This document shows positions 42,785 through 48,774 of a stretch of DNA of 64,000 bases, piece after piece. Each line of letters opens with the position of its first letter. Position 1 is the first letter of the stretch. This DNA comes from an uncultured Chloroflexia bacterium. GTDB taxonomy: Bacteria > Chloroflexota > Limnocylindria > Limnocylindrales > CSP1-4. A program made the translations under genes and the position numbers. The notes under the pieces are model-generated. The model was not told the origin of the DNA, made no database searches, and saw only the letters and a program-made list of their open reading frames with translations. The stretch covers positions 51,180-115,179 of the forward strand of contig CAWEYL010000005.1 of the NCBI GenBank assembly GCA_963813335.1, read 5' to 3'.

Positions 42785-44125
42785 CGGTCGATCGGTCGGT
42801 CCGTGGTCGCGCCTGACCTTGCCGGGCAAGGTCATCTTCACCGTGGTGCCGGTGCTGCTGGCGTCGCTGATCGCGCTCGTCGCGGTCGTCGCGATCCTCG
42901 GGCCGACCATCGTCGACTTCCTCGCGAACAACCTGCCGATCGTCCGCTTCGTCGTCGCGGTGACGGTCGTCCTGCTGATGACCGTGCCGACGGCCTTCCT
43001 GATCATCTACATGGAGATGAAGGTCATCGCGCTGATGAACCTGCGGATCGGCCCGGACCGGGTGGGCCCGTTCGGGTCGCTCGCTGTCGGTGGTCCACGG
43101 GCTCAAGGTCCTCATGAAGGAGGACTTCACGCCGACCGGCGCCGACCCGATCGTCTTCACGTGGGCGCCGGTCGTCGTCTACCTCGCCAGCGTCATGAGC
43201 CTGCTGGTCATCCCGTTCGCTCCCGGGCTCTTCGGGCAGGACCTCAACCTCGGGCTGCTCTACTTCTTCGCGATCGGCGGCCTGTCGGTCGTCGGCCTGC
43301 TGATGGCCGGCTGGTCGAGCTTCAACAAGTACTCGCTGCTGGGCGGGCTGCGCTCCGCGGCCCAGGTCGTCAGCTACGAGATCCCGCTCACCCTGTCGGT
43401 CGTCGGGATCATCCTGCTGGCCGGCACGATGAGCCTCAACCAGATCGTCCTGGACCAGGGCGGCTGGTTCATCGACTGGTACATCTTCCGCCAGCCGCTC
43501 GGCTTCCTGATCTTCTTCATCGCCGCGACCGCGGAGGCGAACCGGACCCCGTTCGACCTGACCGAGGCGGACTCCGAGATCGTCGCCGGCTTCGCCACCG
43601 AGTACTCGGGCATGCGCTTCGGGTTCTTCTTCTTCGCCGAGTACGTGAACGTGTTCATCATCTCGGCCCTGACCGTGACCCTGTTCTTCGGCGGCTGGAA
43701 CGCGCCGTTCCCCTGGCCGTGGCCGGTCACCGTCAACCTCGACCCGGGCGAGCCTCGGGATCGTGCTGCTGCTCCTCGTCGCGATCGTCCCGCTGGTCGT
43801 GACGCTGGTCTTCGCGGCCCCGTTCTGGCTCGCGTCGTCGCGGATCAAGGGCTGGCAGGCGCTCATCGTCGGCTTCGTGCTCGCGAACATCTTCATCGTC
43901 GCCGTCATCGGCGCCTGGGCGTACATCGGGCTCGACTGGGTCGCCGGCCTCGTCTGGTTCCTGGGCAAGACCTACGTCTTCGTGTTCACGTTCGTGTGGA
44001 TGCGCGGCACGCTGCCCCGCGTGCGCATCGACCAGCTCATGGACTTCGCCTGGAAGTGGCTGCTGCCCGCCGCGCTGCTCAACCTGTTCGTGACCGCGAC
44101 GGCGATCGTGGTGGTGGGCAAGTGA
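42781..44125 (+). CDS. nuoH: Complex I subunit H, enlarged; frameshifts near 42800, 43085 and 43750
   Basis: [39 protein letters not shown] and [13 protein letters not shown]. Confidence 0.9.
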
Positions 44126-44800
44126 TCAACGAGCTGATCCCGGGCCTCGGCATCGTCAAGGGCATGGCGCTGACCCTGCGCCGCTTCTTCGAGCCGAAGG
44201 TCACGGTCATGTACCCGGAGGTGCCGGTCGACGTCTCGCCCAAGTTCCGCGGCCGGCTCCAGCTCCTGTACGACGAGTACGGCACGCTCAAGTGCGAGAC
44301 GTGCTTCCAGTGCGCCCAGGCCTGCCCGATCGAGTGCATCGACATGGGCGGCATGGACACCCGCGGCCGGTTCCACGTCCACTGGGGCGCGCCGGAGACC
44401 TACGGCGAGCGTCGCGAGGAATCCGCGCTGCGGCGCTCCGGCCGCCCGGTCCCCGACCCGGCCTACCGGCCGTTCGCAGGCGGTCGACCTCGCGACGGTC
44501 GACGCGATCCTCGAGACCTACGACCACGACCCGGCGCACCTGCTCGCGATCCTCGAGGAGACACAGGCCGCCTACGGATACCTGCCGGTCGCCGCGCTCA
44601 AGCGGATCAGCCAGCTCACCGGCACCTGGTACGCGATGATCTACGGCACCGCGTCGTACTACTCGCACCTGCGCTTCGAGCCCGCCGAGGCGGCCGACCA
44701 GGCGGCCGCGATGGCCGCCCACCGACCGGCCGAGACCGCCTACCTCGCGGCCCTCGGGACGGCCCTCGGTGGCGGCACGGCCCAGCGGGCGGACGCGTGA
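44122..44800 (+). CDS. NuoI N-terminal half fused to a NuoE-like N-terminal helical domain (frameshift near 44480)
   Basis: TVMYPE...FRGR...[16 protein letters not shown] (only one ferredoxin motif), then [16 protein letters not shown]...[11 protein letters not shown] with no 2Fe-2S Cys. Confidence 0.75.
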
Positions 44801-44802
44801 CC

Positions 44803-46128: not shown

Positions 46129-46136
46129 GGCGACCC

Positions 46137-48774
46137 ATGGCCGACCTCCTCACCCGCCCCGACAGCCGCCCGGAGACGGACCCCGTTCCCGAGCCCGAGT
46201 CGCTCGCCGACCGGCTCCTGGCGACCCGCTCGCCGCAGCGGCCGCAGTCGTCGGCGCGCATCCGCATCGAGGTCGACGGCCGGGTCGTCGAGGGCTTCGA
46301 GGGCCAGACGATCCTCGAGGTCTGCCGCGACAACGGCATCGAGATCCCGACGCTCTGCTACGAGCCGAAGCTGCCCGGCTTCGGGGCGTGCCGGATGTGC
46401 GTGGTCGAGGTGGAGGGCGAGGAGCACCCGCCGATCTCCTGCTCGCGGACGTGCGAGCCCGACATGAAGGTCCAGACCCAGACCGAGGAGGTCCGCCGCC
46501 TGCGCCGGACGAACCTCGAGCTGATCTTCAGCGACCACAACGCCTACTGCCTGCCGCCCTGCCAGAACAAGTGCCCGAGCCACATCGACATCCCGGGCTT
46601 CCTCAAGGCCAACGCCGAGGCCAACTGGCGCGAGAGCACGCGGATCTTCAAGCGGACGATCCCGTTCCCCTCGGTCCTCGGGCGGGTCTGCCCGGCCCCG
46701 TGCGAGGAGCACTGCCGGCGCGACGAGGTCGACGAGGCGATCGCCATCCGCGACAGCCACCGCTACGCCGGCGACCAGGTCCTCAAGGCGATGCTCGACG
46801 AGGACGTCGATCCGCCGCTGCCGTTCGAGGTCCAGGCACCGTCCGGTCGGCGGGCCGCGGTCATCGGCTCCGGCCCGGCCGGGATGGCGGCCGCGTTCTA
46901 CCTCCTGCTGGCCGGCCACGAGGTCACCATCTACGAGCGCGACCCGGCGCCGGGCGGGATGCTCCGCTACGGGATCCCGCAGTACCGCCTGCCCAAGGTC
47001 GAGGTCCTCGAGGCCGAGTACGAGTCGGTCACCCGGCTCGGCGGCAAGATGGTCTGCAACATGGGCCTCGGGCGCGACTTCACGCTCGACGACCTGACCA
47101 ACCAGGGCTTCGACGCGGTCGTGGTCGCCATCGGCTGCTACGACACCAACAAGCTGGGCATCCCCGGCGAGGACGCCGCCGAGGTCCTCGACGGCCTCGA
47201 GTACCTGCGCACCGCGACGCTCGGCCTGCCGTACCCCGAGCACGCCGGCAAGCGCGTCGTCGTCATCGGCGGCGGGTTCACCTCGATGGACTGCTCGCGG
47301 ACGTCGGTCCGCCAGGGCGCCAGCGAGGTCACGCTCGTCTACCGCCGCGACATGAAGGACATGCCGGCGTCCAACGAGGTCCACGAGGCCATCGAGGAAG
47401 GCGTCACCGCCATCTTCCAGGCCGGCCCGACGCGGGTCGTCCTCGACGACAAGGGCAACGTCACCGGCGTCGAGTTCATCCGCATGGCGCTCGGCGAGCC
47501 CGACGCGTCCGGCCGCCGCCGCCCGGAGCCGGCGCCCGGCACCGAGTTCATCGTCCCGTGCGACCGCGTGCTGCTCGCCATCGGCCAGGGCCCGGACCTC
47601 ACCTGGATCGGCCCGGGCTCCGAGGGCCCGGAGGCCACCAAGCAGCGCCGCCTCAAGGCCGACGCGGTCACGTTCGAGACCGGCCGGCCCGGGCGTCTTC
47701 GGCACCGGCGACGTGCGCATCGGCGCCGCGACCGTGGTCCAGGCCATCGCCGAGGGCCGCCGCTCCGCGTACGCCGTCGACGCGTTCCTCAAGGGCCTCG
47801 ACCTCTCGTCGATCCGGGCCCGCCAGACGCTCGCCGAGCCGCAGCCCGAGTTCCTCTCGATCGTCCCGTTCACCGGCGAGATCAAGGAGCCGCGCTACCG
47901 GATGGCGGCCATGGAGGCCGAGGAGCGCAACCACAACTACATCGAGTACGAGCTGCCCTACACCCGCGAGGCCGCGGTCGCCGAGTCCACCCGCTGCCTG
48001 CAGTGCACCTGCGAGGCGATCGGCTTCTGCGACCTGCGCCGCCTCGGCATCGAGTACGGCACCACGCTCAAGACGCTCGAGCCGCAGTACCACCAGGGCG
48101 CCGGCTACCGGAGCGTGACCGAGAACCGCTTCACCGGGGTCAACCACGACTACGTCCGTGACGACTCGCACGCGTTCATCCTCCGCGAGCCGTCGCGCTG
48201 CATCGACTGCGGGCGCTGCGCCCAGGTCTGCTCGGAGGTGGTCGGCGCGGCCTGCTACGACTTCATGCGGATCGGCTTCGACACGCTGGTGACGACGCCG
48301 CTCGACATGAGCCTCAACGACACCCCGTGCGTGTCCTGCGGCCGCTGCGCCGAGACGTGCCCGACGGGCGCCCTCATGCCGAAGCCACGGATCCTGCAGA
48401 AGTACGACGTCGACGAGAGCCGCTGCATCCTGTGCGGCATCTGCGTCGACGCGTGCCCCTACGACGCGCTCCGCGACGGCGGCGACATCGAGCTCGCCCA
48501 TACGAGCCGGTCCGAGCCGATGATCGACCTGATGGCGATCGCCGCCATCGACCGCGAGACCGAGATCACCTACATCCGGCGCGAGCGCGGCTGGGCGGAT
48601 GCCGCCGCCGCCGAGGGCCGCGTGCTCGACCCCGCCCGGATGCTCCCGATGCTGCCCGCCACGATCGCGGGGCTCCCGTCCGGCAACGGCAACGGGCATG
48701 GGCACGGCGACGGGCACGACCACTCGAATGGCCACGGCGCCGGGACGGCGCTGCTCGGCAGCGGGCACGAGTAG
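46137..48774 (+). CDS. NuoG-N / GltD-like FAD-NADP(H) domain / ferredoxin / NuoI C-half fusion (StnC-like; frameshift near 47690)
   Basis: IPTLC..GACRMC..SC (2Fe-2S); PPCQNKCP and [30 protein letters not shown]; three CxxCxxCxxxC motifs. Confidence 0.8.

Follow-up and report, generated by a model that had tools for sequence, protein, structure and literature searches.

Two-part NuoI fused to a Stn/Nfn-related electron-input module in the complex I operon of Limnocylindria (Chloroflexota)

The complex I operon of an uncultured member of the Limnocylindria was studied in contig CAWEYL010000005.1 of assembly GCA_963813335.1. The window, the whole stretch of DNA analysed, is 64,000 nucleotides long and belongs to a genome that is 81% complete. 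NuoI of this lineage is encoded as two halves, each fused to a protein of an electron-input module. The N-terminal half is called I(N) and the C-terminal half I(C). The operon lies at 39.9 to 54.8 kb on the plus strand and its order by Pfam matches is A-B-C-D-H-[I(N)::E']-F'-[G'::GltD::I(C)]-J-K-L-M-N, as an earlier note made on this DNA from the letters alone had given it. The nuoA, B, C, D, H, J, K, L, M and N genes are all present in the one operon. Three reading units stand in place of nuoI between nuoH and nuoJ. I(N) starts at the end of nuoH, and the large gene bearing I(C) ends 7 bases before nuoJ. The favored reading, to which a probability of about 80% was given, is that of a complete complex I operon whose sole nuoI was interrupted by three genes derived from the Stn/Nfn group of Bfu enzymes. 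The two halves would re-form NuoI and the complex would have a two-flavin input.

The NuoI model TIGR01971 has 121 positions. In a profile search of the genome to which the window belongs, positions 1-64 matched at 44161-44355 with 53.1 bits and positions 71-116 matched at 48388-48525 with 40.8 bits. The two matches are complementary and do not overlap. No intact nuoI was found in this genome, as none of its eight TIGR01971 matches reached the cut-off of 113 bits. One CxxCxxCxxxCP motif is present per polypeptide, both in the window and in all 54 aligned relatives, the 54-sequence alignments including two distant Chloroflexota. The first motif is C58 to P69 of the open reading frame (ORF) piece starting at 44122. 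The second, motif C, is C238 to P249 of the 353 amino acid piece starting at 47713. C58, C61, C64, C68 and P69 of I(N) were invariant in 54 of 54 sequences, and so were C238, C241, C244, C248 and P249 of I(C). The invariance of all eight motif cysteines argues that the split is not due to chance.

Comparison with PDB sequences gave 37 matches for I(N), of which 36 were N-halves of NuoI/NDUFS8 and the remaining one was a weak match to succinate dehydrogenase subunit B. I(N) covers residues 7-89 of Mycobacterium smegmatis NuoI (8e9g_I) and 7-68 of Thermus thermophilus Nqo9, while I(C) covers residues 84-129 and 86-128 of the same two proteins, respectively. The best single PDB stretch for the C-terminal piece was NuoI 93-145 of 163 (50.9 bits), which reaches past the cysteines. 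Polyferredoxins topped its PDB list by summed weak repeats, with at most 20.7 bits per stretch. The top NCBIfam families were NuoI for both pieces, and the seven best families of the C-terminal piece were all NuoI, each matched over the C-terminal part of the model. The earlier note had reported a NuoI N-terminus with only the first motif at 44122, running into a NuoE-like domain, and had placed the missing half at the C-terminus of a large flavoprotein just before nuoJ. Both statements were upheld by the model coverage (TIGR01971 1-64 with PF01257 2-64, and TIGR01971 71-116). Its motif coordinates, 44293-44328 and 48424-48459, were all correct by translation and alignment. The comparison of the C-half with generic ferredoxins had been set beforehand and came out in favor of NuoI.

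Related loci were collected from 595 pattern matches, which gave 261 confirmed stretches in species-representative genomes; 80 of these were analysed. The closest loci were labelled Candidatus Limnocylindrales or Limnocylindria (Chloroflexota). A NuoI above the cut-off was not found in 118 of 121 Limnocylindria genomes, each at least 85% complete, which held the two halves only, approximately 4.3 kb apart. The 121 genomes include four unpublished ones (G131, G122, G094 and G114), without which the count is 114 of 117. The same split had been asked for in related genomes and is present in them. The only complex I encoded in the 118 genomes is of the split-NuoI type. The other three genomes (G110, G092 and G061) encode a canonical NuoI besides the halves, in ordinary D-F-G-H-I-J-L operons. 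These intact copies were considered as a possible unsplit ancestor and rejected, as they lie in second, canonical operons and share only 32-40% identity with the halves. Among 301 genomes drawn from across the phylum were 34 Limnocylindria, all of which matched the fused I(N)::E' over both parts; the match of the window's own genome was in two pieces owing to a frameshift. The split of NuoI is class-wide in the Limnocylindria.

In folds with two [4Fe-4S] clusters of the ferredoxin type, each cluster is ligated by three cysteines of one motif and by a fourth that the other motif supplies. Motifs A (C163-C173) and B (C206-C216) of the 353 amino acid piece correspond to the two-cluster domain of HydA, NfnA and Nqo3. 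Because A and B pair as this NuoG/HydA domain, nothing in the large protein is left to pair with motif C. The I(N) motif likewise stands alone in its chain. That the two halves together make up a single ferredoxin fold with N6a and N6b is strongly suggested by the complementary model coverage, by the invariance of the eight cysteines and by the absence of another NuoI. The I(N) and I(C) motifs would pair across two polypeptides, with each cluster held by three cysteines of one chain and one of the other. Through the covalent links E'-I(N) and G'-I(C), the input module would then be stapled in two places to the Q-module. A complex prediction was made with four 4Fe-4S clusters and the segments 1-119 of I(N) and 150-310 of the C-terminal piece. 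Its score of 0.19, compared with a mark of 0.32, does not weigh on the pairing either way. AlphaFold2 modelling of the 353-residue piece gave a mean predicted local distance difference test score of 44.7 and a predicted template modelling score of 0.21, too low for the model to be used, with a shallow alignment of 54 rows that were mostly 80-91% identical.

The large protein had its strongest similarity to NfnA of Caldicellulosiruptor saccharolyticus (9bov_A, E value 1.5e-158, residues 38-769 aligned to 4-699 of 1178). It also matched StnC of Sporomusa ovata (8oh5_C, E value 1.6e-138) and a further NfnA (9n5u_A). Its Pfam domain order is Fer2_4, Fer4_20 with Pyr_redox_2, Fer4_Nqo3 and an extra Fer4 motif. 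The alignment to StnC and NfnA stops near residue 700 of 1172-1178, and the large protein ends about 100 residues further on with the C-half of NuoI; the Fdh-like C-terminal domain is missing. F' (442 amino acids) matched HydB, StnB and NfnB at E values of about 1e-100 and covers only residues 121-540 of 599 of HydB. It is comprised of Pfam Complex1_51K and NADH_4Fe-4S only, without the N- and C-terminal iron-sulfur (Fe-S) domains of Bfu B subunits that hold the B2-B5 sites. E' has no cysteines and no thioredoxin-like [2Fe-2S] domain, and its PF01257 match is confined to positions 2-64 of 145. The score of F' on the NuoF model TIGR01959 was 337.6 bits (cut-off 558.65) and that of the large protein on the NuoG model TIGR01973 was 95.2 bits (cut-off 470). 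By homology the inserted genes are related, in trimmed form, to the soluble StnABC/NfnABC (Bfu) transhydrogenases and are not canonical nuoEFG. The earlier note had named them an E/F/G-type cassette. The inserted module is real, but it is a Stn/Nfn-Bfu relative and not an ordinary E/F/G set.

An origin of motif C from the Molybdop_Fe4S4 motif of StnC/NfnA was considered and rejected. The 9bov_A alignment is weak past motif B, the cysteine spacing is not kept, and HydA is also without cysteines in that region. The tail of the large protein (window 48680-48771) is of low complexity and rich in glycine, histidine and asparagine. Its length and sequence differ among relatives, and it was not found in the Ktedonobacterales-type proteins of the alignment. 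In F' the CxxCxxC motif of the N3 type (window 45847-45867, C350-C356) has a threonine at the second cysteine. The module was also considered as a stand-in for the PntAB transhydrogenase, and this was rejected as PntB is present in 117 of the 121 Limnocylindria genomes (113 of 117 without the four unpublished).

Electrons would enter the complex at two flavins, NADH at the flavin mononucleotide (FMN) of F' and NAD(P)H at the flavin adenine dinucleotide (FAD) of the GltD domain. From the NuoG-type clusters they would pass to N6a/N6b, to N2 of NuoB and to quinone, with proton pumping driven as usual. Both NADPH and NADH are probably electron donors of the pump. Motif B and I(C) are 22 residues apart, so the hand-over to NuoI probably runs by the branch that is a dead end in Nfn and Stn and not by the histidine-ligated cluster of the N5 type that canonical complex I uses. 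According to passages of PMC10482914 and PMC11829005, that Fe-S branch, directed towards the Fdh-like domain, is a non-functional remnant in the Stn/Nfn enzymes. The module would no longer bifurcate, since it is without the C-subunit [2Fe-2S] domain and the additional Fe-S domains found in B subunits. Sections of PMC11829005 and PMC12018979 describe the B1-FMN-C1 group as the bifurcation site; in the published Bfu structures, the bifurcation and ferredoxin sites lie in just those missing regions. Non-bifurcating homologues without clusters B2-B5 are reported in a section of PMC9304861. The absence of ferredoxin-dependent bifurcation in the present module is predicted from the missing domains.

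The two frame changes at the split locus (about 44476-44478 and 47686-47694) are both +1 shifts. At least seven frame changes were present in the operon when compared to the intact ORFs of locus L029, in nuoA, nuoC, nuoD, nuoH (twice), I(N)/E' and the large gene; six of the seven were +1 shifts (window 39900-48800). I(N) and E' form one ORF of approximately 220-235 amino acids in 60 of the 64 loci of relatives that hold both parts. The four exceptions were two frame changes and two cases where the upstream extension met a stop. The large protein is one ORF of approximately 870-890 amino acids in 65 of 71 loci, with six exceptions (two frame changes, three stops by the coordinates used and one confounding paralogue). 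Contigs from four public runs were aligned to the window at 90% identity or more and may stem from close relatives rather than the same strain. Those of runs X1 and X4 have one base fewer at 44476/44478, and those of X6, X15 and X4 have one base fewer at 47686/47691/47694. As both shifts are +1 and the contigs are one base shorter, the contigs restore the frames. By these comparisons the I(N)/E' and large-gene frameshifts are assembly errors, as had been suspected. Rather than decay, the frame changes across the operon seem to reflect insertion errors made systematically during assembly. The pntB gene on another contig of this genome is also in two frames. Run X15 is a metatranscriptome library. 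Every one of the 30 bins is covered by its contigs at 90% identity or more. One contig spans 47691 without the extra base, which is no more than a weak hint of transcription, since contigs by themselves do not show it and DNA carry-over is possible.

The number of frame changes in the operon and the broken pntB could also point to an artefact or a decaying operon, with a misassembled or pseudogenised nuoI in a noisy long-read bin. This is highly improbable and, for the split itself, already refuted. The same architecture occurs with intact ORFs in the great majority of relatives' loci counted above, many of them from short-read assemblies, the split is class-wide, and independent contigs lack the extra bases. 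The pairing of the motifs is a separate matter. If motif C paired with motif B in its own chain, the halves would not re-form NuoI, I(N) would hold one cluster at most, and the wire to N2 would be built differently. Several results weigh against a re-formed NuoI in this way. Pfam Fer4_7 fits motifs B and C as one two-cluster domain (residues 206-252), TIGR01971 positions 40/41-111 align across B and C in four Ktedonobacterales-type proteins, and the 22-residue distance between the two motifs is typical of ferredoxins. In addition I(N), I(C), F' and the large protein were all below the curated cut-off of every NCBIfam family, I(N) reaching 53-54 bits and I(C) 41 bits on NuoI. However, motif B is already partnered with A by homology to HydA, NfnA and Nqo3, and its pairing with C would leave A and I(N) as two orphans compared with none otherwise. 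The region past motif C matches NuoI over 53 residues and the four cysteines of I(N) do not vary. Pairing within the chain was therefore considered unlikely.

A split that is real could also serve NADPH as the sole physiological donor, with F' acting as a scaffold or an NAD+-reducing outlet and not as the entry of NADH. Electron flow in Stn/Nfn is from NADPH at the FAD to the FMN according to passages of PMC10482914 and PMC11829005, which would agree with this. The second cysteine of the N3-type motif also agrees with it and weighs against NADH entry at F', being threonine (41) or serine (29) in all 70 Limnocylindria hits but kept in 6 of 6 loci of other Chloroflexota. The F' cluster adjacent to the FMN could be unusual in its ligand or its potential, and the FMN branch may be altered. 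The specificity of the GltD domain for NADPH over NADH, a further point of doubt for the two-donor input, is predicted from homology to StnC, NfnA and NfnL only. On the other side, three cysteines with a serine or threonine can still hold a cluster. The glycine-rich GLRGRGGAGFP.G.KW, presumably the FMN site, is kept in F' of the window, F' matches the NuoF family as given above, and these genomes have no other complex I for NADH. NADPH as the only donor is quite unlikely. The presence of FAD and FMN on one Fe-S chain that branches to quinone, together with the N3-type threonine or serine next to the FMN, leads to a more speculative reading. The enzyme could be a membrane-bound, proton-pumping hybrid of transhydrogenase and complex I, in which NADPH oxidation is coupled to the reduction of both quinone and NAD+, or is reversed by the proton-motive force. 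As part of the same reading, the hybrid would use the NuoG cluster branch, blind-ended in Nfn/Stn, to dock on NuoI, unlike the canonical N5-to-N6a geometry. The frequency of PntB counts against it, as there is no obvious need for such a link, and the hybrid is considered unlikely. The two-flavin complex I with a re-formed NuoI remains the preferred reading.

With NuoI/Nqo9/NDUFS8 (TYKY; TIGR01971/PRK05888; 2fug_9, 8e9g_I and 8qby_I) the two pieces share both motifs and the place between nuoH and nuoJ, and they jointly cover the model. The difference is that the fold is here spread over two polypeptides, each fused to another protein, with 4 kb of genes between them. StnABC of Sporomusa ovata (8oh5), as described in part of PMC10482914, has the same gene order of E-like, F-like and G/GltD-like subunits. 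NfnABC of Caldicellulosiruptor saccharolyticus and Thermococcus sibiricus (9bov/9bp5 and 9n5u) are soluble Bfu NADPH-dependent transhydrogenases according to passages of PMC11829005 and PMC12018979. Both groups resemble the present module in gene order, in strong sequence matches and in their unusual large subunit, where NuoG-type Fe-S domains enclose a GltD/NfnL domain. Unlike them, the module has no Fdh-like domain, no E-like [2Fe-2S] domain and no F-like N- or C-terminal Fe-S domains. Its ends are fused to the NuoI halves, and its genes lie inside a membrane complex I operon and not in a soluble three-gene unit. The branch that ends blindly in Stn/Nfn leads here into NuoI.

The nearest published system is Nuo-Bfu, a predicted 14-subunit (A-N) complex I in which a bifurcating BfuABC replaces NuoEFG (Schut et al. 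2022, PMC9304861). Sections of that paper place it in Deferribacteres, Proteobacteria, Planctomycetes and Nitrospirae, with NADH and reduced ferredoxin as the predicted donors. The likeness is in a Bfu-type module that feeds a proton-pumping, quinone-reducing complex I and whose genes are in the middle of the nuo cluster. NuoI and GltD are not mentioned in the main text of the paper. The 2015 genome survey of complex I in PMC4758237 reports, in one of its sections, that mbx-like operons of Thermotoga and proteobacteria have a flavoprotein related to gltD in the place of NuoI, which from that section is a different arrangement. No description of a split NuoI or of this operon was found in a full-text literature search, in line with the earlier note, which knew of none. 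Like the present module, the canonical NuoEFG N-module has an FMN/NADH site in its NuoF-type subunit, and its NuoG carries the [2Fe-2S] domain at the N-terminus and the two-cluster ferredoxin domain. The present module differs in having neither an N1a domain nor a molybdopterin-like NuoG domain, and in having an extra FAD/NAD(P)H domain. Canonical operons occur as second copies in 3 of the 121 Limnocylindria genomes and, among other Chloroflexota, in 5 of 5 tested.

Outside the class, 12 non-Limnocylindria genomes were among the matches listed in the phylum-wide draw, aligned from query position 5-8 to 177-195 with 27-34% identity. In five of six such genomes, nuoB, I(N)::E', F' and G'::GltD::I(C) form a compact cluster amid unrelated genes. 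The sixth, G321, has nuoA-B-C-D-H-I(N)::E'-F'-G'..I(C) followed by a rubrerythrin gene (L106:4427-4987, minus strand) instead of nuoJ-N; its membrane-arm genes must be elsewhere in the genome. Fifteen of the 20 related loci of the compact type were labelled Ktedonobacterales or Ktedonobacteria. A canonical NuoI over the cut-off was present elsewhere in 5 of 5 tested genomes with the compact cluster. With its own NuoB, this additional set may form another peripheral arm that works with a shared membrane arm, or it may be a separate enzyme. The split module is thus also found in Ktedonobacterales beside a canonical complex I, which bears on the place and time of the insertion. A profile of I(N)::E' searched against 1.84 billion proteins (clustered at 50%) gave 74 representatives at E values of 1e-30 or less. 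Among the 150 matches listed, 15 span profile positions from 20 or lower to 160 or higher, covering both parts. Public annotation labels them "NAD(P)H-dependent oxidoreductase subunit E", "ferredoxin" or "hypothetical protein", leaving the NuoI half unrecognised.

Electrons enter respiration mainly through complex I, whose 14 core subunits are considered to be highly conserved. The present system is rated as a complex I with an exchanged input module and with a core Fe-S subunit divided between two fusion proteins. A core subunit found only as halves on two fusion proteins would be a natural split-protein staple of a foreign module to the Q-module. It would also represent one concrete route by which complex I acquired or exchanged electron-input modules. 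Limnocylindria and Ktedonobacterales are abundant in soil and freshwater and, with a flavin site of the NADPH type, may respire NADPH directly. If true, this would change the redox-balance models of both groups. An Fe-S branch that is a dead end in Nfn/Stn and leads here into a quinone reductase bears on the kinship of Bfu enzymes, formate dehydrogenases and complex I.

Table 1. Features of the complex I operon in the window, with the basis of each assignment.
Feature	Position	Strand	Basis and remarks
nuoA	39903..40285	+	Pfam Oxidored_q4; frame change near 40194 (tblastn with L029 ORFs)
nuoB	40210..40995	+	Pfam Oxidored_q6; single frame
nuoC	41011..41566	+	Pfam Complex1_30kDa; frame change near 41125
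nuoD	41137..42781	+	Pfam Complex1_49kDa; frame change near 42585
nuoH	42819..44125	+	Pfam NADHdh 4-43 and 49-247, two frames; frame changes near 43095 and 43750
I(N), NuoI N-terminal half, first CxxCxxCxxxCP at 44293-44328	44122..44478	+	TIGR01971 positions 1-64
+1 frame change between I(N) and E'	44476..44478	+	One frame in relatives; X1 and X4 contigs
E', N-terminal helical part of NuoE/StnA	44483..44800	+	PF01257 positions 2-64 of 145
F', NuoF/StnB-like FMN and NADH-binding core	44803..46128	+	Pfam Complex1_51K and NADH_4Fe-4S
Large flavoprotein G'::GltD::I(C)	46137..48774	+	9bov_A (E value 1.5e-158), 8oh5_C, 9n5u_A
[2Fe-2S] domain, NuoG/HydA type	46254..46484	+	Pfam Fer2_4, residues 40-116
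GltD/NfnB-like domain: two [4Fe-4S] sites, FAD, NAD(P)H Rossmann fold	46548..47663	+	Fer4_20 138-217, Pyr_redox_2 240-509; PDB NfnL, GltD, DPD
+1 frame change in C/G run, large gene	47686..47694	+	X6, X15 and X4 contigs; one frame in relatives
NuoG/HydA-type ferredoxin domain, motifs A and B	48178..48375	+	Fer4_Nqo3 156-221; 9bov_A 585-699, HydA 118-234
I(C), NuoI C-terminal half, second CxxCxxCxxxCP at 48424-48459	48388..48525	+	TIGR01971 positions 71-116
nuoJ	48781..49377	+	Pfam Oxidored_q3
nuoK	49383..49685	+	Pfam Oxidored_q2
nuoL	49682..51646	+	Pfam Proton_antipo_N/M/C
nuoM	51619..53304	+	Pfam Proton_antipo_M
nuoN	53304..54791	+	Pfam Proton_antipo_M; named from its place as last antiporter-like gene

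Two of the related loci had further features. In Limnocylindrales locus L060 a GltD-like paralogue with a C-terminal Fer4 two-cluster domain (L060:1219-2865) lies directly upstream of the large gene, with 38% and 29% identity to two parts of it. nuoH, I(N), E' and F' were not found within 3 kb upstream at this locus. Locus L105 is from a metagenome-assembled genome of the Ktedonobacterales that is a complete chromosome. Its four-gene cluster (L105:6577-11758) is flanked by a glyoxalase, a kinase-like AAA protein and unknowns, and the genome also has a canonical nuo operon with an intact NuoI. An 885 amino acid protein with TIR, NB-ARC and TPR domains is encoded near the cluster (L105:1825-4482, minus strand); it is of a defence or signalling type and unrelated to the split.

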